Assembly: GCA_031412235.1 (NCBI GenBank)
Contig: JANOCP010000075.1
Coordinates: forward strand, 5,696-69,695
Reading direction: 5' to 3'
Length of the DNA: 64,000 bases
Source of the DNA: Polaromonas sp.
Lineage (GTDB): Bacteria > Pseudomonadota > Gammaproteobacteria > Burkholderiales > Burkholderiaceae_C
Below the pieces are notes generated by a model, which did no database searches, was not told the DNA's origin, and saw nothing but the letters and a program-made list of their open reading frames with translations. Within the stretch, counting starts at the first letter, position 1, and each line of letters begins with the position of its first letter. The position numbers and the translations under genes were made by a program. Of the stretch, positions 9,123 to 62,178 are shown in pieces.

Positions 9123-9650
9123 ATGAGAAATCACCCCAGCACGAATGGCGCATCCTTCCGTCAATACCTTGGTCCTGCATCGGCAGGACATCGGTACAAG
9201 AGGCGAGGATTCACGCTGATCGAACTCGTCATCTCAATGGCAATTGTTGCCATCCTGACCAGTATTGCCCTGCCTGCCTACACCAGCTATATCGCAAAAG
9301 CCAGGCGGGCCGACGCCCGGACGCAGTTGGTCCAGGTCGCGCAGTTCATGCAACGCTTTTATGCAGCTAACGACAGTTTTGCCAAAGATCGCGCCAATAA
9401 CGATGTCATCGGGCAGGTGCCGCCTGGTTTGCAACAGTCTCCCGCCGACAGCACCAAAATTTATACGCTGACCATTCCTGCTGAAACTCTGGCCGCAGGC
9501 AGTTTCGAGATCCGCATGAGTCCGGTTGTGGGAGGCTCAATGGCCAACGATCGATGTGGGGCTTTCACCCTGACATCAACCGGGCTGCGTGGTGTTTTGA
9601 ACGGTGACGTGGTCGGTGATACCAGCTTGCGCGACGCCTGCTGGCGCTAG
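9123..9650 (+). CDS. pilE: Type IV pilin PilE-like
   Basis: RGFTLIELVISMAIVAILTSIALPAYTSYIAKARRADARTQL is a classic type IVa pilin N-terminus. C-terminal Cys pair (DRCGAF...RDACW). ATG 9123 is the only canonical start and gives a 28-aa leader. Confidence 0.8.
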   Translation: MRNHPSTNGASFRQYLGPASAGHRYKRRGFTLIELVISMAIVAILTSIALPAYTSYIAKARRADARTQLVQVAQFMQRFYAANDSFAKDRANNDVIGQVPPGLQQSPADSTKIYTLTIPAETLAAGSFEIRMSPVVGGSMANDRCGAFTLTSTGLRGVLNGDVVGDTSLRDACWR

Positions 9651-9717
9651 GATTCGGCCGCGGTTTGCAAGAAACCAACTATCTCAGTCAGGCGGGGTCG
9701 TGACTACCGAGCCTATG

Positions 9718-9735
9718 TGTCATACTTATCTGACA
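9718..9735 (+). promoter_or_regulatory. PpsR/CrtJ-type palindrome TGT-N12-ACA immediately upstream of bchI
   Basis: TGTCATACTTATCTGACA ends 1 nt before the bchI ATG (9737). There is no Shine-Dalgarno between them. Confidence 0.55.
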
Positions 9736-9736
9736 T

Positions 9737-10768
9737 ATGACAGTGTCTTTTTCTTTTTCTGCAATTGTGGGCCAGGACGAGATGAAGCTGGCGATACTTA
9801 TCGCCGCCATTGACCCCAGCATTGGTGGCGTTTTGGTGTTTGGTGATCGTGGCACGGGCAAATCGACTGCGGTACGGGCGCTTGCAGCGCTGCTACCCAA
9901 AATGCGTGCAGTTGTCGGTTGCCGATATGGTTGCGACCCGGCGAACAGCAGCGTCAGCTGTGAGGATTGCGCCGCACTTCGTAACGCTGCCAAAGCCCCT
10001 CCCAAAAGTCATCTCGTACCTGTGCCTGTGGTTGACTTGCCGTTGGGTGCTACTGAAGACCGCGTGGTCGGAGCGCTCGATCTGGAGCGTGCGCTGTCGC
10101 AGGGCGTCAAGGCATTTGAGCCAGGTTTGCTGGCCAGGGCGAACCGGGGGTTTTTGTACATAGATGAAGTCAACCTGCTTGAAGACCATCTGGTTGATCT
10201 TCTGATTGACGTGGCCGCGTCGGGCGAGAACGTTGTAGAACGTGAGGGCCTGAGCGTGCGGCATCCGGCACGCTTTGTACTGGTGGGCAGCGGTAACCCC
10301 GAAGAAGGTGAGTTGCGCCCCCAGTTACTTGACCGCTTTGGCCTGTCGGTTGAAGTCAAAACGCCGGAAGACCTGGCCTCACGCGTTGAGGTCGTTCGCA
10401 GGCGTGATGCTTTTGAACACGACCCGGCAGGCTTTACTGAAAAGTGGAAAAAGGAAGACGAACGCACGCGTCGGCGCATCGTTGCTGGGCGTACACGCCT
10501 GAGCACGGTAAACATTCCGGATGCCGCGCGCGAAAGGGCAGCGCAGCTTTGCATGGCGCTGGGTACTGACGGACTGCGTGGTGACCTCACAATGATTCGC
10601 GCAGCCCGCGCACTGGCAGCATTGCAGGGGGACGCCGAAGTTACCGACGTACATTTGCGCCGTGTTGCCGCGCCGGCACTGCGCCATCGGCTGCGCCGTA
10701 ATCCGCTCGACGATGCGGGTTCCAGCGTGCGGGTAGACCGCGCTGTCACCGAGTTGATGGGCACCTGA
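9737..10768 (+). CDS. bchI: Magnesium chelatase ATPase subunit I
   Basis: FSFSAIVGQDEMKLAILIAAIDPSIGGVLVFGDRGTGKSTAVRALAALLP (Walker A). FLYIDEVNLLEDHLVD (Walker B). Typical BchI length. Confidence 0.95.
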   Translation: MTVSFSFSAIVGQDEMKLAILIAAIDPSIGGVLVFGDRGTGKSTAVRALAALLPKMRAVVGCRYGCDPANSSVSCEDCAALRNAAKAPPKSHLVPVPVVDLPLGATEDRVVGALDLERALSQGVKAFEPGLLARANRGFLYIDEVNLLEDHLVDLLIDVAASGENVVEREGLSVRHPARFVLVGSGNPEEGELRPQLLDRFGLSVEVKTPEDLASRVEVVRRRDAFEHDPAGFTEKWKKEDERTRRRIVAGRTRLSTVNIPDAARERAAQLCMALGTDGLRGDLTMIRAARALAALQGDAEVTDVHLRRVAAPALRHRLRRNPLDDAGSSVRVDRAVTELMGT

Positions 10769-20855: not shown

Positions 20856-20899
20856 TGTCTATATTAGTTGACAGTAACTAGTGACAATATATGTTTACA
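20856..20899 (+). promoter_or_regulatory. Tandem PpsR/CrtJ-type palindromes with sigma70-like promoter upstream of crtE (divergent with ccmA)
   Basis: TGTCTATATTAGTTGACA (perfect TGT-N12-ACA, 20856-20873, ending in a TTGACA -35 box). An 8-bp spacer follows, then TGACAATATATGTTTACA (TGA-N12-ACA, 20882-20899) covering a TATGTT -10 candidate 16 bp after the -35. Confidence 0.6.
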
Positions 20900-20968: not shown

Positions 20969-21889
20969 ATGAAAGCCATTACACATATTGAACAATCGCT
21001 GGCAGCGGCGCTGGCGTTGGGCGAAGCGCCCGGTTGCCCTCCCAAGCTGGCTTGCGCTGTTCGGCATGCCGTGTTCCCGGGTGGCGCGCGCATACGGCCC
21101 CAGTTATGTCTGGCTGTGGCGCAGGCCTGCGGAAATGATGATCCGCTGCTGGCCGATGCCGCAGCAGTGGCCATTGAACTGCTGCACTGTGCCTCACTGG
21201 TGCATGACGACCTGCCGTGCTTTGACGATGCACCCACACGCCGTGGGCGTGCCTCGGTGCATTGGGCTTACGGCGAGAGTCTGGCGGTTCTGGCGGGTGA
21301 CGCCTTGATTGTGCTGGCGTTTCAAACCCTTGGTCTGGCGGGTGGCCAGTCACCAAAACGTATGGCTGAAGTGCTGGGCGTGGTGGCCAGAGGTGTCGGC
21401 ATGCCCTTTGGCATTGTGGCGGGGCAGGCATGGGAAAGCGAGTCCCGGGTGTCGCTCACTGCTTATCAGCGGGCTAAAACCGGGGCACTGTTTGTAGCTG
21501 CAACAGCTGGCGGTGCTTTGGCTGCGGGGGCAGACGCCAAGCCCTGGGTTGCTCTGGGCGAGTGGCTCGGCGAGGCCTATCAGGTGGCCGACGATATTCG
21601 TGATGTGATGGCGGACCCAAGCCTGCTCGGCAAGCCGGTGGGCCAGGACGTGGCATTGGGCCGTCCCAGTTCGGCCATTGGCCTGGGGCTGGGTGGCGCC
21701 ATCGCTTACTTCGAAAAACTGGTGCAGTCGGCGATTGATTCGGTGCCCGAATGCGCGAGCCGCGAGGCGATGAGACAACTGGTGCGCCAGGAGTCAGAGC
21801 GCCTGGTGCCCCGCGAGGCCTGCGACAAGTTCAGGCATGTACAGGCGGTGCAAGGTGTTGCATCCCCTGTCAATAGCGTTGCCGCCTGA
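20969..21889 (+). CDS. crtE: Geranylgeranyl diphosphate synthase
   Basis: Polyprenyl synthase Asp-rich motifs LVHDDLPCFDD and YQVADDIRD. SD GAGGAG upstream. Confidence 0.9.
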   Translation: MKAITHIEQSLAAALALGEAPGCPPKLACAVRHAVFPGGARIRPQLCLAVAQACGNDDPLLADAAAVAIELLHCASLVHDDLPCFDDAPTRRGRASVHWAYGESLAVLAGDALIVLAFQTLGLAGGQSPKRMAEVLGVVARGVGMPFGIVAGQAWESESRVSLTAYQRAKTGALFVAATAGGALAAGADAKPWVALGEWLGEAYQVADDIRDVMADPSLLGKPVGQDVALGRPSSAIGLGLGGAIAYFEKLVQSAIDSVPECASREAMRQLVRQESERLVPREACDKFRHVQAVQGVASPVNSVAA

Positions 21890-23099: not shown

Positions 23100-23143
23100 C
23101 GTAAATAAGAATTGACACTTTATTTTGTAAATATAAACTGACA
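23100..23143 (+). promoter_or_regulatory. Tandem PpsR/CrtJ-type palindromes with sigma70-like promoter abutting the bchC ATG
   Basis: CGTAAATAAGAATTGACA (cGT-N12-ACA, ends in TTGACA). An 8-bp spacer follows, then TGTAAATATAAACTGACA (perfect, 23126-23143). TAAACT -10 candidate 16 bp after the -35. The bchC ATG at 23147 has no SD. Confidence 0.6.
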
Positions 23144-23146
23144 GTC

Positions 23147-24082
23147 ATGCAAGCACAAGCTATCGTCTTCCAAGCGCCCCGGCAACTGCTGGTCAAAGCG
23201 CTGGATTTGCCCCAAGCGGGTGCAGGTGAGATAGAAGTTCAGGTCGAATTCAGTGGCATAAGCACCGGTACAGAGCGCTTGTTGTGGGATGGCACCATGC
23301 CCGCTTTCCCTGGCATGGGCTACCCGCTGGTACCGGGTTACGAGTCAGTCGGCCGCGTAGTCGGTAAAGGCCCTGATGTTGACCTGCAATTGGGCACACG
23401 GGTGTTCGTACCCGGCGCTCAATGCTTCGCAGGTGTTCACAATTTGTTTGGTGGCTCTGCCTCCCGGCTGGTGGTTCAGCAGTCGCGCACCGTGGCTGTG
23501 CAGGAATCGCTGGGCGCAGAAGCTGTGTTGATGGCTCTGGCTGCCACGGCACAGCACGCGCTGGCGGGTGGTACACCACCCGATTTGATCATTGGGCACG
23601 GTGTCATGGGTCGTTTGCTGGCCAGGTTGACACTGGCTGCAGGCCATGCAGCACCCACCGTGTGGGAGCTCAACCCCGCCCGTCAGGCTGGCGCTCAGGG
23701 GTACAGCGTATGCAGTCCCCATGATGATCCTCGCCGTGATTACCGCGCTATTTATGACGTCAGTGGCGATTCCAGCATTCTGGACAAAGCGATCGCCCGT
23801 CAAGCCCCAGGCGGCGAAGTGGTGTTGGCGGGCTTTTACAAAGAGTCACTGAGCTTCGCGTTCGCTCCGGCTTTTATGCGAGAGACACGAATTCGCATTG
23901 CCGCCCAGTGGAAGCGTGAGGATTTGCTCGTCACTGCGGATCTCGCCCACGGCGGCAAACTGTCCCTTGATGGCTTGATCACCCATTCTGAGTTGCCTGG
24001 GAAGGCCGAGGCTGCGTATCACACGGCTTTCGGCGATGCGGCTTGCTTAAAGATGATTCTGGATTGGAAACACAGCACATGA
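23147..24082 (+). CDS. bchC: Bacteriochlorophyllide a dehydrogenase (3-hydroxyethyl bacteriochlorophyllide dehydrogenase)
   Basis: GISTGTERLLWDGTMPAFPGMGYPLVPGYESVGRV is a typical BchC/MDR-family signature. Confidence 0.92.
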   Translation: MQAQAIVFQAPRQLLVKALDLPQAGAGEIEVQVEFSGISTGTERLLWDGTMPAFPGMGYPLVPGYESVGRVVGKGPDVDLQLGTRVFVPGAQCFAGVHNLFGGSASRLVVQQSRTVAVQESLGAEAVLMALAATAQHALAGGTPPDLIIGHGVMGRLLARLTLAAGHAAPTVWELNPARQAGAQGYSVCSPHDDPRRDYRAIYDVSGDSSILDKAIARQAPGGEVVLAGFYKESLSFAFAPAFMRETRIRIAAQWKREDLLVTADLAHGGKLSLDGLITHSELPGKAEAAYHTAFGDAACLKMILDWKHST

Positions 24083-51795: not shown

Positions 51796-53618
<1,823 letters not shown>

Positions 53619-53620
53619 GG

Positions 53621-53665
53621 GTGCAATTTAGCCCCACAAGTTCAAAGTGTCAATCTATATTGACG
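53621..53665 (-). promoter_or_regulatory. bchF promoter with PpsR/CrtJ-type palindromes, read on the minus strand
   Basis: The minus strand reads CGTCAATATAGATTGACA-ctttgaact-TGTGGGGCTAAATTGCAC-cc-ATG. Site 1 is cGT-N12-ACA and ends in TTGACA. A 17-nt spacer leads to a TAAATT -10, then 6 nt, then the bchF ATG. Site 2 is degenerate (TGT-N12-CAC). Confidence 0.6.
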
Positions 53666-53842
53666 TAAATTAAGGTTGACAGTATTTATTGAACTTAAAA
53701 AGTCATAAATCAGTAGAAACTTGATTGACCTCAATCGTTTTCGACTGTAAAAGCTGTGTAGCTTTGGCGAGGCTGCCTTCATGGACTACTCGCGGCGCTA
53801 TTTTTTTAGGTAGAGACTTATTAAAAATATCGGCAACGCAAC

Positions 53843-53909: not shown

Positions 53910-54860
53910 ATGGACTTGCAGTCAAAAGTCAACCCCGATCGGGCCGGCAGCGTGCCGGAGTTGCAGCATTTTGCTGTTGCCACAGATCGCCGGGCCTATG
54001 CAGAAGGCAGTCAGGCCATCGCGCGGCTGGCAACTGACGCCAACCGCGAGACCGTTGAGTTAAGGCTGGCTTTGCTGTCTCGGGCGATTGAGGACGAAAT
54101 CATTCCGCGGCTGATGCTGGCGCACCCCGGTGCTGTCGACTGCCTGCCTTTGACACCCCCCGCCAGCGCTCAAGTCAGTTTGGAAGATGTGCGGTCCTTT
54201 GCCCAACTGGTGTTGGCTCCGGACGAAAACGTGGCCCATGCTTGCATCGAGACCATGCGCACCAGCGGTATTTCTGTCGAAACCATTTACACCGACCTGT
54301 TGGCTCCAGTGGCCAGGTATTTGGGCGAGTTGTGGGAAGACGATCTTTGCGACTTCACCCAAGTCACCGTGGGTTTGGGGCGCCTGCAGCAGGTGCTCAG
54401 GGAGTTGAGCCCCGCGTTTAGTCAGTCCAGCGCCAACTCCAGCGGAAATCGCGTCCTGCTGCTTCCCGGGCCTGGCGAGCAACATACTTTTGGCCTGGTC
54501 ATGGTTGCCGAGTTTTTCAGGCGTGCTGGCTGGGACGTGGCTGGTGGCCCGTGGGAGGCGGGTGCCGACCCCATCGTCATGGTGCAGCGCGAATGGTTTG
54601 ATGTGGTGGGCTTTTCGCTGGGCAACGTGGACCAGCTTGACGACCTCGCAGCCTGCATCAAAAGCGTGCGTTCAGCGACCTTGAATAAAACTATCTGCGT
54701 TATAGTGGGCGGGCCCCTTTTCCTGGCCAATCCTGAGTATGTGGCCTACGTGAACGCAGATGCTGCCTCCACAGACGGTGCGCAAGCGCCAGGCTTGGCA
54801 GCAAGCTTGGTAGCTGCGCGGGGCCGGGGTTCTGACTTGGGCGCTAATGCAGTTTCCTAG
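53910..54860 (+). CDS. aerR: Cobalamin-binding PpsR antirepressor AerR/PpaA
   Basis: SCHIC-like helical region (..VARYLGELWEDDLCDFTQVTVGLGRLQQVLREL..). B12-binding domain with the (D/E)xHxxG motif (PGEQHTFGLVMVAEFFRRAGWDV). It lies immediately upstream of ppsR. SD GAGGAG. Confidence 0.85.
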   Translation: MDLQSKVNPDRAGSVPELQHFAVATDRRAYAEGSQAIARLATDANRETVELRLALLSRAIEDEIIPRLMLAHPGAVDCLPLTPPASAQVSLEDVRSFAQLVLAPDENVAHACIETMRTSGISVETIYTDLLAPVARYLGELWEDDLCDFTQVTVGLGRLQQVLRELSPAFSQSSANSSGNRVLLLPGPGEQHTFGLVMVAEFFRRAGWDVAGGPWEAGADPIVMVQREWFDVVGFSLGNVDQLDDLAACIKSVRSATLNKTICVIVGGPLFLANPEYVAYVNADAASTDGAQAPGLAASLVAARGRGSDLGANAVS

Positions 54861-54927: not shown

Positions 54928-56382
54928 GTGAAGTCACCGCAACAGGCAACAAAAGAAATCACAATCGGGCGATTTGACAGCCCTGAGCTGTTTCTAGCTG
55001 GTTTAGATGCGCAGACTGCCGCTTCTTTAATTTCTGCGGCTGCCGACGTTGCCCTCATTCTGGATGAGCATGGCGTGATTCAAGATATGGCCTTTGGTAA
55101 CGACGAGCTCAGGCATGGCCACCACGATTGGCTTGGCAAACCATGGCTGCAAACCGTTACGATAGAAAGCCGGCCTAAAGTTGAGGAAATGCTAAGCGAG
55201 GCGGTTAGCAGCGGCAGTGCCAAGTGGCGGCACATCAACCACCCTTCGGCCGACAGTGCCGACCTGGCGCTGCTCTACACCATCGTCCCACTCAGCCGCG
55301 AGGCAGGCCCGCACCGCTCTGTCGCCTTTGGCCGCGACTTGCGCTCACAAGTCGCGTTACAGCAGCGCTTGGTCAGTGCCCAGCTCTCGATGGAGCGCGA
55401 TTATTGGCGATTGCGCCATGTTGAAACCCGCTATCGCTTGCTGTTCCAGGTAGCTGCTGAGGCAGTGCTGATACTGGACGCCACCACCGAAAAGCTCGAG
55501 GAGGCGAACCCCGCCGCCTACAAATTGCTGGGCGACAAGGCACGCGTTGCCAATTGGACGCTGACCCAGAGCCTTGACTCCTTAAGCGTGCCGGCCGTTT
55601 TGCAAATGTTTGCAGCGCTTCGGCTGCGTGGGCGTGCGGACCCGATCACGGTCTGTTTTACCGAATCTTCGGACGTTTACACCTTGTCCGGGTCGCTGTT
55701 CAGACAAGAAAATTCCACCCACTTTTTGGTCCGCGTCACACCTTTAAAGCCCACAGCGTCCTCGACTGAAAGCGCTTTGACGCAAATGCTGCTGCGCGTC
55801 GTCGACAACGCGCCTGATGCATTTGTCGTGACCGATATGGATGGCCGGGTAATGACTGTAAACCGGGCTTTCCTGGAGCTGACACAACTGGCGAGCGAGG
55901 CGCTGGTGCGCGGCGAGCCATTGCAAAAGTGGCTGGGCCGTAGCGGCGTAGACATGAATGTACTGATCTCCAACTTGCGCCAGCGCGGCACGGTACGCCT
56001 GTTTGCGACCACCCTGCAAGGCGAGTATGGCTCGACCGCTCAGGTCGAGATTTCAGCCGTCAGCGTGACGACAGGCGATCAGCCTTGCCTGGGTTTTACC
56101 ATCCGCGATATTGGCCGGCGCTTGACCAACGAACCGACGTTGACGAGCAAAGACCTGCCGCGCTCGGCTGGCCAGATGACCGAGCTTGTGGGCCGTGTTC
56201 CGCTGCGCGACATCGTGCGTGAAACCACGGATTTGATCGAAGAGTTGTGTATTCAAGCGGCGCTGGAACTGACCGGTGACAACCGCGCTGCTGCCGCAGA
56301 AATGCTGGGTCTGTCGCGCCAAAGTTTGTACGTCAAGCTCAAGCGTTTCGGCGTAGGTGATGTTGAACTTGAAAACAGATAG
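54928..56382 (+). CDS. ppsR: Photosynthesis gene repressor PpsR/CrtJ (PAS domains plus Fis-type HTH)
   Basis: GTG start. PAS repeats. C-terminal ..IEELCIQAALELTGDNRAAAAEMLGLSRQSLYVKLKRFG with the conserved Cys just before the HTH. Confidence 0.88.
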   Translation: MKSPQQATKEITIGRFDSPELFLAGLDAQTAASLISAAADVALILDEHGVIQDMAFGNDELRHGHHDWLGKPWLQTVTIESRPKVEEMLSEAVSSGSAKWRHINHPSADSADLALLYTIVPLSREAGPHRSVAFGRDLRSQVALQQRLVSAQLSMERDYWRLRHVETRYRLLFQVAAEAVLILDATTEKLEEANPAAYKLLGDKARVANWTLTQSLDSLSVPAVLQMFAALRLRGRADPITVCFTESSDVYTLSGSLFRQENSTHFLVRVTPLKPTASSTESALTQMLLRVVDNAPDAFVVTDMDGRVMTVNRAFLELTQLASEALVRGEPLQKWLGRSGVDMNVLISNLRQRGTVRLFATTLQGEYGSTAQVEISAVSVTTGDQPCLGFTIRDIGRRLTNEPTLTSKDLPRSAGQMTELVGRVPLRDIVRETTDLIEELCIQAALELTGDNRAAAAEMLGLSRQSLYVKLKRFGVGDVELENR

Positions 56383-56491: not shown

Positions 56492-57904
56492 TCAGGTATT
56501 TGAAGGACTCTTGTTGAGCGTTTCCAGCTGATGACGGTTGATGCCCAGCAGCGTAGCTGCCTTGTTCAGGTCAGCGCCAGCGCGCTCCATCGCCATGCGA
56601 ATAAAGTTGCGCTGCAACAATTCTGATGCGCGCTGCATCAGCTCCGGTAATGCTGCACTGCCGACCTGGTCACACAGCACCTTCACAGCTGCTTGCATGG
56701 GCTCTACAGTGACGGAAATGTCTCCGCCAGCTGTTGGCGTTAGTCGGATGCTAAAACCAATGCACGGCGGGTCTATCTCGCTGAGCAGGGTAGCCGCCAC
56801 CTCAACTGGCTTGATAACGGCATCTTGCGCCAGTACCGTTGATGGCGCGTAGCCCGTCATACCCTCACGGCCGACGCGCTCCAACAATTCCGCAAAAGGC
56901 TCATTTGGCAGGCTGAGCCAGTCCGAAAGCGGGCGCCCCCTGACCGATGCCTCAGTACTGGCCTGTACCAGTTTCAGAAAAGCCGGGTTGGCCACCAAAA
57001 CACCGCCATCCACGTCGGTGACGGCCACACCGTCGCTGGCGCTGTCGACCAGCCGCGCCAGTGTGGCGCCCAGGTTGGCCGATGAGCCTAGCTGCTCGGC
57101 AGTTCTGATCCTGACCAGCAACTGCTGCGAGTCCAGGACGCGGAACGGTGTCGCCGTGACGCTGGTGCTGGTGACCCGACCCAGCAGTTGGGCACGGGTT
57201 TCGGTTGACTGCCCGCTTTGAAGTGCGCTGGCAAGCGCCGCATGGACGATGTCGCGCGAATGACGTTCAAAGCCAAAGCAGGCGCTTTGGCCCACCACCT
57301 GGCTGGACGACAAATCAAACAATTCAGACGCGCTTTGGTTGGCTTCAATGATGTTGAGCGTACTGCCATCAACCACAATGACGGCATCGGTCGCTACCTG
57401 AAAAAGTAGCCTGTAGCGCGCCTCGGCCTGCCGGGCACGAGCGTAGTTGCGCTCCATTTCACGCTGCGCACAAATGAATTTTTGCTGTAATGCGGCACTG
57501 CTGCCCAAGTCACGTCCCACGGCTAAAATCGGTCCGCGCGAGCCCAGGCGCATGGCAGTGTAGGCCACTGGTACCGTCGCACCGTCGCCTGCGGGGTGAT
57601 TGACTTCACGCTTTCGGGTTGCGCAGGTGGGCGACGCCTCGGCCATCAAACGCTCGACTTTGGATTTTGATTCACTGGTCACTGTTTCCGACCAGAGGTG
57701 ACCGACCCAGGTATGGGCATCGCTGGCCAGCGGAGTGGATGCGCGCTGGTCAACCCGCTGCACGACACCCCTTTCGTCAATCACCAACGCGATATCGCCG
57801 CCCAGGGACACCATGGTGCGCGCAAGCTCGGGAGCCCATTCGGACAATGACTCTGAAAAAGAGCTTGCCGTGCTGGCCACTGTCGAGTTCATTGCTTCGG
57901 TCAT
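56492..57904 (-). CDS. Second PpsR-family regulator (PAS domains plus Fis-type HTH)
   Basis: Same architecture as ppsR: ..DIALVIDERGVVQRV.., ..RYRLLFQVATDAVIVVD.., and C-terminal ..FIRMAMERAGADLNKAATLLGINRHQLE. It lacks the Cys preceding the HTH. Confidence 0.8.
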   Translation of the reverse strand: MTEAMNSTVASTASSFSESLSEWAPELARTMVSLGGDIALVIDERGVVQRVDQRASTPLASDAHTWVGHLWSETVTSESKSKVERLMAEASPTCATRKREVNHPAGDGATVPVAYTAMRLGSRGPILAVGRDLGSSAALQQKFICAQREMERNYARARQAEARYRLLFQVATDAVIVVDGSTLNIIEANQSASELFDLSSSQVVGQSACFGFERHSRDIVHAALASALQSGQSTETRAQLLGRVTSTSVTATPFRVLDSQQLLVRIRTAEQLGSSANLGATLARLVDSASDGVAVTDVDGGVLVANPAFLKLVQASTEASVRGRPLSDWLSLPNEPFAELLERVGREGMTGYAPSTVLAQDAVIKPVEVAATLLSEIDPPCIGFSIRLTPTAGGDISVTVEPMQAAVKVLCDQVGSAALPELMQRASELLQRNFIRMAMERAGADLNKAATLLGINRHQLETLNKSPSNT

Positions 57905-57927
57905 GACATCACCTTCACCCTAAGTTT

Positions 57928-57954
57928 GGCCGCCCGTCGATATGGACGGCGGCC
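57928..57954. promoter_or_regulatory. GC-rich hairpin in the ppsR2 / bchG divergent region
   Basis: GGCCGCCCGTC-gatatg-GACGGCGGCC (one bulged C). Confidence 0.3.
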
Positions 57955-58032: not shown

Positions 58033-58076
58033 TGTAAATATAAGTTGACACAAGCAGATGTCAATTAAATAATACA
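58033..58076 (+). promoter_or_regulatory. Tandem perfect PpsR/CrtJ palindromes with sigma70-like promoter abutting the bchG ATG
   Basis: TGTAAATATAAGTTGACA (ends in TTGACA), an 8-bp spacer, then TGTCAATTAAATAATACA. The AT-rich -10 candidates (TAAATA/ATAATA) lie inside the second palindrome. The bchG ATG is at 58080, preceded by an in-frame TAA and no SD. Confidence 0.65.
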
Positions 58077-58079
58077 TAA

Positions 58080-58979
58080 ATGCTTGTTTTGGCTTCGCGC
58101 CCCTCTTTTTCTACAGTCGCTGAATTGTTCAAGCCCATAACCTGGTTTCCGCCGATGTGGGCGTTTGCCTGCGGCGTGGTGGCATCTGGCGTGGCCATGG
58201 AGGGTAAATGGTTGCTGGCAGTAGTTGGCGTGGCATTGGCGGGGCCTTTCGTGTGTGCCACCAGCCAGGCCGTCAATGACTGGTATGACCGGCATGTCGA
58301 CGCCATCAACGAGCCGCTTCGCCCCATCCCCTCCGGCCGTATGCCAGGCCAATGGGGCTTTTACATAGCCGTGCTGTGGACGGTAATCTCGATGCTGGTC
58401 GCCACCGTGCTCGGGTTTTGGGGATTTTGCGCTGCGGTGGTGGGCTTGCTGCTTGCATGGGCTTACAGCGCGCCGCCAATTCGCCTGAAAGAAAACGGCT
58501 GGTGGGGCAATGCGGCCTGCGGCTTCAGTTATGAGGGCATCGCCTGGGCCACGGGTGCGGCGGTGATGGCCGGCGGTGTGATGCCAGATAGCCGCTCTCT
58601 GTTGCTGGCGCTGATGTACAGCATTGGCACGCACGGCATCATGACGCTAAACGACTTCAAGGCTGTCGAGGGTGACAGGCAGATGGGCGTACGCTCACTG
58701 CCAGTGCAACTTGGTGTGCAAAACGCCGCGCGCGTGGCTTGTGGCGTAATGATTTTGTCGCAGGCGGTGGTGCTTGTGCTGCTGCTCAGTTGGGGCAAGC
58801 CTGTGCATGCGGCTGCGATTGGTGCTTTGATGGTTGCGCAGTGCGTCATGATGCGGCGCTTTTTAGCCAGTGTGACGCAGCGTGCCCTCTGGTACAGCGG
58901 CTTTGGCGTCCCCCTTTTTGTGGCCGGCATGATGGTCAGCGCCTTTGCATTACGTGGCCTGGCAGGAGTTGGGTCATGA
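58080..58979 (+). CDS. bchG: Bacteriochlorophyll synthase (UbiA family)
   Basis: ..ELFKPITWFPPMWAFACGVVASG.. and the prenyltransferase motif NDWYDRHVDAINEP. Confidence 0.92.
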   Translation: MLVLASRPSFSTVAELFKPITWFPPMWAFACGVVASGVAMEGKWLLAVVGVALAGPFVCATSQAVNDWYDRHVDAINEPLRPIPSGRMPGQWGFYIAVLWTVISMLVATVLGFWGFCAAVVGLLLAWAYSAPPIRLKENGWWGNAACGFSYEGIAWATGAAVMAGGVMPDSRSLLLALMYSIGTHGIMTLNDFKAVEGDRQMGVRSLPVQLGVQNAARVACGVMILSQAVVLVLLLSWGKPVHAAAIGALMVAQCVMMRRFLASVTQRALWYSGFGVPLFVAGMMVSAFALRGLAGVGS

Positions 58980-61857: not shown

Positions 61858-62178
61858 TCAAGCGGCTTTCTTGACCCAGGCGCTGCACCAGCCTTTGCCA
61901 GCAACTTGTTTGCCTGCAAACAATGGACAAGCAGCTGCTGCGTCGGTTGCCTTGCCTGCATACAACTGGCAGTTGTTGCATAACTGCGTGTTGGCGTGTT
62001 TCGGATACTTTTTGGCATCTACCTTGGTGGTGTCAGCGACATAACCCAGGCCTACAGCTTGAGGGTCTTTTTCATTGACCATAGGTGCGGCGGCTTGTGC
62101 CATTGCGCTGGATGCGGCAAGGGTAGAACTACCTGCAGCGACGTGCAGCATAAATACTCTGCGGTTCGTGTTTTTCAT
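61858..62178 (-). CDS. hip: High-potential iron-sulfur protein (HiPIP) precursor
   Basis: Tat-type signal (NRRVFMLHVAAGSSTLAASSAMA). Four Cys in the HiPIP pattern (..LCNNCQLY..AAACPLFAGKQVAGKGWCSAWV). Confidence 0.88.
   Translation of the reverse strand: MKNTNRRVFMLHVAAGSSTLAASSAMAQAAAPMVNEKDPQAVGLGYVADTTKVDAKKYPKHANTQLCNNCQLYAGKATDAAAACPLFAGKQVAGKGWCSAWVKKAA

Follow-up and report, generated by a model that had tools for sequence, protein, structure and literature searches.

The window, by which the whole analysed stretch of 64,000 nucleotides is meant, is a photosynthesis gene cluster (PGC) in a Burkholderiales MAG (440 contigs, 92% complete). The nearest named relative of its BchC belongs to a Polaromonas MAG, with 81% identity. 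NCBIfam models confirmed BchF, BchN, BchB, BchH, BchL and BchM on the minus strand and PpsR and BchG on the plus strand. The regulatory genes are the following:

53910-54860, plus strand: aerR (B12-binding type), upstream of ppsR
54928..56382, plus strand: ppsR, the cognate repressor (TIGR02040, 501.9 bits)
56492..57904, minus strand: ppsR2, a second PpsR-like paralogue divergent from bchG (TIGR02040, 264 bits; cutoff 275.4)

Promoters operated by PpsR/CrtJ are the textbook model of oxygen and light control of photosynthesis genes, a model in which ordinary leaders follow them. Sites of the form TGT-N12-ACA, exact or with one mismatch, were found at bchF, bchC, bchG, bchI and crtE. The elements at bchF are:

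53681-53664, minus strand: upstream PpsR-type palindrome of the bchF operator, TGTCAACCTTAATTTACg, overlapping cGTCAATATAGATTGACA by 2 nt
53665-53648, minus strand: palindrome cGTCAATATAGATTGACA
53653-53648, minus strand: -35 hexamer TTGACA, the last six bases of cGTCAATATAGATTGACA
53647-53631, minus strand: 17-nt spacer between -35 and -10
53630-53625, minus strand: -10 hexamer TAAATT, outside both palindromes
53624-53619, minus strand: GCACCC, followed by the bchF ATG at 53618-53616
53073..53618, minus strand: bchF coding sequence (181 aa), heading bchFNBHLM-lhaA-puh, with its predicted +1 on the A of the ATG (53618)

The first-pass annotation had described a cGT-N12-ACA palindrome ending in TTGACA, a 17-nt spacer, TAAATT, GCACCC and a bchF ATG without a Shine-Dalgarno sequence (SD), and this arrangement was recovered exactly at 53665-53616 on the minus strand. 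It had counted only one palindrome there, however, and missed the second, overlapping one (TGTCAACCTTAATTTACg, 53681-53664). The bchF operator is thus a variant in which both palindromes overlap by 2 nt and cover the -35 side only. Their centres lie 16 bp apart, compared with 26 bp in the operators of bchC, bchG and crtE, and each of these distances is half-integral in helical turns.

The A of the bchF ATG is the seventh nucleotide past TAAATT, which is the canonical sigma70 start position. BchF itself matched TIGR02020 with 180.7 bits over residues 23-164 (NCBIfam). An in-frame TAA inside the -10 hexamer, 9 nt 5' of the ATG, closes the upstream frame, and the next in-frame start is codon 39, within the conserved BchF core, so that the start codon is unambiguous. 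Neither the window nor 10 relatives have any in-frame start other than the +1 ATG ahead of this core.

At the other loci with PpsR-type sites, all of them on the plus strand, the elements are:

23100-23117, plus strand: upper palindrome of bchC, cGTAAATAAGAATTGACA, with the -35 TTGACA at 23112-17
23126-43, plus strand: lower palindrome of bchC, TGTAAATATAAACTGACA, below an 8-bp spacer, with the -10 TAAACT at 23134-39
23147..24082, plus strand: bchC coding sequence, with GTC between the lower palindrome and the ATG, whose A is the predicted +1
58033-50, plus strand: upper palindrome of bchG, TGTAAATATAAGTTGACA, with the -35 TTGACA at 58045-50
58059-76, plus strand: lower palindrome of bchG, TGTCAATTAAATAATACA, 8 nt below the upper one, with the -10 AATAAT at 58068-73
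58080..58979, plus strand: bchG coding sequence, with TAA, an in-frame stop, directly before the ATG; the A at 58080 is the predicted +1
20856..20899, plus strand: crtE operator and promoter, 18-8-18 palindromes with TTGACA-16-TATGTT, an internal control
9718-9735, plus strand: single PpsR palindrome of bchI, TGTCATACTTATCTGACA, followed by T and then by the ATG at 9737

Two palindromes 8 bp apart, spanning both -35 and -10, are thus present at bchC, bchG and crtE. The -10 hexamer TAAACT stands 7 nt before the bchC ATG and AATAAT 6 nt before the bchG ATG. An ATG lacking an SD just behind the palindrome had also been reported earlier for bchC, bchG and bchI, and this was borne out, the gaps here being 1-3 nt. 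About 67 nt of leader, including GAGGAG, separate the crtE ATG at 20969 from its operator, even though this is the same 18-8-18 operator as at bchC and bchG. Misplacement of the start codons was rejected as an explanation: there are in-frame stops immediately 5' of the starts, and ahead of the conserved cores no alternative start exists. At bchC, relatives of the leaderless and of the leadered architecture align at the same N-terminal Met.

The bchG palindromes (58033-58076) carry opposed promoters, the minus-strand one, TTGACA (58064-58059)-16-TATATT (58042-58037), pointing at ppsR2, and therefore one operator pair could repress both genes. About 125 nt of leader, with a strong SD, precede ppsR2. 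Between the ppsR2 start and the bchG promoter lies a GC-rich inverted repeat, GGCCGCCCGTCGATATGGACGGCGGCC, at about 57926-57952, without a T-run after it.

The bchI gene differs from the others in having an extended -10, TGT-CATACT (9718-9726; TGTCATACT), without a recognisable -35. The CATACT ends 10 nt before the ATG, which is borderline for the -10 spacing of a leaderless gene; the transcription start site (TSS) is predicted at about 9733, which would give a leader of about 4 nt and a transcript that is near-leaderless at best. The motif TGnCATACT is kept before bchI in relatives (L091-93, L098-100, L114), and the palindrome-ATG arrangement is common to only 2 close relatives. The gene is situated at the edge of the PGC (9650-9737), directly 3' of a same-strand type IV pilin operon, and in many relatives bchI is placed behind another gene and has an SD.

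Strong SDs were present at the leadered first genes crtE, aerR and ppsR2 and at pufL and pufM, while a recognisable SD was missing at bchD, bchO, bchY, bchH, bchB, crtF and most ccm genes; of the internal genes of the PGC and the ccm group, about half have no recognisable SD over the whole window. The contrast drawn in the first-pass annotation, SD-less heads of bch transcripts against internal genes with strong SDs, accordingly holds for crtE, aerR, pufL and pufM and fails for about half of the internal genes. Absence of an SD was rejected as stand-alone evidence of leaderless transcripts, since so many internal genes lack one here. Many of these internal genes are joined by ATGA or overlapping stop/start junctions, and this pattern suggests that they rely heavily on translational coupling. 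A 106-aa ORF 3' of bchP (61858-62178, minus strand) has the leaderless-type geometry TTGAGA-18-TAGGAT-6-ATG.

Bare TGT-N12-ACA sites were not enriched in the window (16 found, 16.0 expected), and the argument cannot therefore rest on palindrome enrichment. The A/T-rich palindromes ending in TTGACA were, every one of them, within promoter gaps. An unbiased sigma70 scan recovered bchG TTGACA-17-AATAAT with 11 matches of 12, and bchF TTGACA-17-TAAATT, bchC TTGACA-16-TAAACT and crtE TTGACA-16-TATGTT with 10 of 12 each; it gave 4 sites per scanned region, compared with 1.9 and 1.0 expected from shuffles.

Strict leaderless geometry was found at the true start of 13 of the 5,864 ORFs, bchC and bchF among them, compared with 5-11 at shifted control offsets, and a genome-wide leaderless habit was rejected on these counts. 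The geometry is concentrated at PpsR promoters heading long biosynthetic operons. Over their first 45 nt the predicted mRNAs are weakly structured, with less structure than their shuffles (z +1.0 to +1.6), which lends weak support. A pyrimidine at -1 was considered as a TSS signature and dropped, because C precedes 54% of the SD-led ATGs here and the trend disappears outside the family.

The spacing was compared across the same GTDB family, sampled with one genome per genus (200 genera, about 35 with a PGC). The nominal +1 was set 30 nt past the end of the -35, the distance was measured from the -35 to the first usable in-frame start, and loci with a start at -1 to +2 of the nominal +1 were assigned to the leaderless class. 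The relatives are not statistically independent. The leaderless class included bchG in 30/30 genera and bchF in 20/30, all with ATG, and bchC in 10 of 24 family loci. The ten remaining bchF loci have leaders of 8-51 nt, and the remaining bchC loci leaders of 23-86 nt. When the loci with a tandem operator were pooled, 41 of 86 bchC loci were in the leaderless class. Leaders of 3-7 nt were found in none of the compared loci of bchG, bchF and bchC, and the distribution is thus bimodal.

The spacing is kept and the sequence is not: the spacer and the stretch between -10 and ATG drift among the family loci, while the distance from -35 to ATG is constant within 2 nt over more than 55 genera. At bchF the 34-bp unit of two palindromes was retained in 30/30 family loci, all with the consensus TGTCAAnnTTnATTTACGTCAAn6TTGACA, and a -10 of the form TA(A/G)ATT at 17-nt spacing in 27/30. 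The start codon is ATG in 82 of the 83 loci of the leaderless class, and GTG and TTG occur among the leadered loci. The latter mostly have canonical SDs (for instance AAGGAG in L002, GGAGG in L027 and AAGGGAG in L029), with dG down to -14.

Outside the family, ATG was found at the nominal +1 of bchG in 25 of the 27 loci with a PpsR-type -35, all of them with ATG; these loci represent nine families, six of them further Burkholderiales and three other Gammaproteobacteria. A bchG leader, of 24 nt, was seen in one family only. With bchC, the gap between palindrome and ATG is 2-4 nt in Polaromonas, Limnohabitans, Rhodoferax, Hydrogenophaga, Curvibacter and similar genera, and 28-101 nt in Rubrivivax, Roseateles, Ideonella, Rhizobacter and Methylibium as well as in Bradyrhizobium, Acetobacteraceae, Azospirillaceae, Ectothiorhodospira and Lysobacterales. 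Four Rhodobacteraceae (plasmid sequences) have the bchC operator as here, and behind it a leader of 60-75 nt, a strong SD and a start codon that is GTG or TTG.

These bchC leaders in Rhodobacteraceae and other groups, together with a leader at bchF of Dinoroseobacter shibae, mean that the leaderless layout is not a general PGC property, and the earlier suggestion that it might be one does not stand. On the sequences compared, the predicted layout is a conserved, lineage-specific variant of the classical PpsR promoter, and an ancient one at bchG.

On a tree of concatenated BchC, BchG and BchI from 23 genomes, the state of bchG did not change, whereas that of bchF changed at least five times, each leadered genome being an isolated tip, and that of bchC at least four times. 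The states of bchF and bchC vary independently between the genomes. Such repeated exchange of a putative +1 ATG for a leader with an SD would be expected of two alternative working solutions at one promoter.

Among the 45 leadered bchC loci, 11 keep an ATG at the nominal +1, compared with 2.8 expected, and nine of these open an upstream ORF of 12-31 codons (L045, L056, L059, L060, L150, L151, L160, L179 and L185; L151 is Roseateles depolymerans). Leadered bchC genes with such a +1 ORF occur in Roseateles depolymerans and in Ideonella and Rubrivivax MAGs. The upstream ATG is out of frame with bchC and located 2-5 nt past the lower palindrome, and the stop codon of the ORF overlaps the bchC start (ATGA in eight loci, TGATG in L185). 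The +1 ATG may thus begin a leaderless upstream ORF that is coupled to bchC; the coupling is only suggestive, because 78% of all leaders leave this frame open anyway and the control made within leaders is not independent. Comparable upstream ORFs of 10-12 codons precede bchF in L005 and L007. In five further loci (L046, L049, L054, L164 of Methyloversatilis, and L175) the +1 ATG is in frame with BchC and adds 4-18 N-terminal residues, which looks like a third way to keep a +1 AUG.

The best-supported explanation, with a probability of roughly 0.7, is that the bchG, bchF and bchC transcripts are leaderless, with their 5' end on the AUG, and that the bchI transcript has a leader of about 4 nt. 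The first-pass proposal that PpsR-controlled bch transcripts are leaderless or nearly so is in this form upheld for bchG, bchF and bchC by the fixed spacing, the bimodal split, the repeated switches and the geometry shared with Rhodobacter capsulatus, and is weak for bchI. The position of +1 is derived from the sigma70 rules of E. coli and Rhodobacter, and the true TSS could lie 1-3 nt away.

In mechanistic terms, 53616-53681 would be a sigma70-type, PpsR-operated promoter of bchFNBHLM. PpsR bound to both overlapping palindromes, including the -35, would block RNA polymerase, as judged from homology, and on de-repression the polymerase would start about 7 nt past TAAATT, at the A of the bchF ATG. 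With the start predicted on the AUG, the first cistron would have neither a 5' UTR nor an SD; ribosomes would bind its 5'-terminal AUG directly in a 70S-type initiation, and the downstream cistrons would depend on SDs or translational coupling. The design at bchG and bchC would be as at bchF, except that the -10 is inside the lower palindrome and 3 nt separate this palindrome from the ATG. At bchF and bchC the leaderless design appears to have been exchanged repeatedly for a leader with an SD, bchG being nearly invariant.

It is also conceivable, although unlikely, that the genes are mainly translated from leadered mRNAs, by read-through from crtEF in the case of bchC and from unrecognised upstream promoters in the case of bchF and bchG, the A/U-rich operator then serving for SD-independent ribosome loading of the S1 type. 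The bchC gene is internal to a same-strand superoperon, crtEF-bchCXYZ-puf, and read-through transcripts with a long 5' region must therefore exist as well; A and T strongly predominate in the 20 nt preceding the ATGs of bchC and bchG, and many genes in the window function without a recognisable SD. At bchF and bchG, however, there is no same-strand gene upstream, the neighbours being divergent, and the sigma70 scan found no other same-strand promoter in the 290-bp spacer of bchF or the 175-bp spacer of bchG. Translation from leadered mRNAs also leaves unexplained the distance from -35 to ATG that is fixed in more than 55 genera, the gain of SDs at longer gaps, and the ATG at +1.

Equally improbable for bchF, bchC and bchG is a TSS slightly ahead of the ATG, with which the mRNA would be near-leaderless and have a 5' UTR of 1-5 nt; for bchI this is certainly the likelier case. 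The gap between -10 and ATG varies from 5 to 8 nt among the relatives, the conserved CATACT of bchI lies 10 nt before the ATG, and RNA polymerase can choose its TSS flexibly within about 6-9 nt, all of which would allow such short leaders. At bchF, bchC and bchG, however, the A of the ATG occupies the canonical seventh to eighth position and is the best purine available, and the functional difference would be little, as such mRNAs lack an SD either way.

That the TTGACA and TAnnnT hexamers are by-products of the PpsR palindromes, with another sigma factor (e.g. the RpoH-like SP70 of Roseateles) acting elsewhere, is very improbable: TTGACA is indeed intrinsic to TGT-N12-ACA sites that end in it, but TA(A/G)ATT of bchF stands outside any palindrome and is yet kept at exactly 17 nt, the homologous R. 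capsulatus bchC promoter has its -35 and -10 spanned by palindromes (PMC5362033), and in the Roseateles PGC no RpoH-type consensus was found and a direct effect was left undecided by the authors (PMC10037100).

Beyond transcripts that simply start on the AUG, it could be imagined, though doubtfully, that beta- and gammaproteobacterial phototrophs share an old "leaderless regulon" of PpsR promoters, in which the +1 AUG itself is under selection and translation of the first enzyme is gated by the capacity for 70S initiation. This capacity might shift during starvation or slow growth, when aerobic phototrophs induce their pigments. The +1 AUG is kept almost universally at bchG and is often still present where bchC or bchF gained a leader. 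If true, such a regulon would add a post-transcriptional layer to PpsR control.

If the leaderless reading of bchG, bchF and bchC is true, a large group of freshwater aerobic phototrophs, including Limnohabitans, Polaromonas, Rhodoferax and many other Burkholderiales together with some gammaproteobacteria, starts its pigment operons with leaderless mRNAs. Control through the 5' UTR would be ruled out at these bch genes, and start-codon annotation and the design of reporter fusions would change. The orthologous promoters, having switched repeatedly between the leaderless and the SD-led state, would also form a natural series for studying the evolution of initiation modes. A literature search found no published description of leaderless PpsR-controlled bch transcripts.

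One of the closest known counterparts is bchC of R. capsulatus, where CrtJ palindromes are located at -4 to -21 and -30 to -47 from the mapped TSS and the two together span the -35 and -10 recognition sequences (PMC5362033). As in that promoter, bchC, bchG and crtE here have two TGT-N12-ACA sites 8 bp apart, the upper over the -35 and the lower over the -10, and the identical 18-8-18 geometry would make the first base of the start codon +1 at both bchC (A at 23147) and bchG (A at 58080). Unlike in the four Rhodobacteraceae, in which a leader follows the bchC operator, the ATG itself would thus be at +1. The bchF operator differs from that of R. capsulatus bchC in its overlapping palindromes with centres 16 bp apart.

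In D. shibae, PpsR motifs lie over the -35 and over the -10 and TSS of bchF, and occlusion of sigma70 has been proposed by the authors (PMC10890935). The bchFNBHLM operon and the PpsR repressor are common to D. shibae and the window; in D. shibae, however, the lower motif reaches only to position -28 relative to the start codon, and a leader of about 24 nt is expected from a TSS that is only predicted. In Roseateles, transcription of bch, puf and puh depends on an RpoH-like sigma factor, with no promoter defined (PMC10037100).

An accepted signature of leaderless genes is a TANNNT some 10 bp ahead of the start codon (PMC3160421), and leaderless translation is AUG-dependent in E. coli and Caulobacter (PMC9031893), a requirement with which the ATG of the leaderless-class loci (82/83) fits. 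Known examples come from Deinococcus, Actinobacteria and, in E. coli, lambda cI and Tn1721 tetR, with 70S ribosomes on the 5'-terminal AUG (PMC3160421, PMC9031893). In Deinococcus and Actinobacteria leaderless genes occur genome-wide, whereas strict geometry is rare here. As in the known leaderless genes, the -10 hexamer of bchF, bchC and bchG lies 6-8 nt before the AUG, and an SD is lacking.
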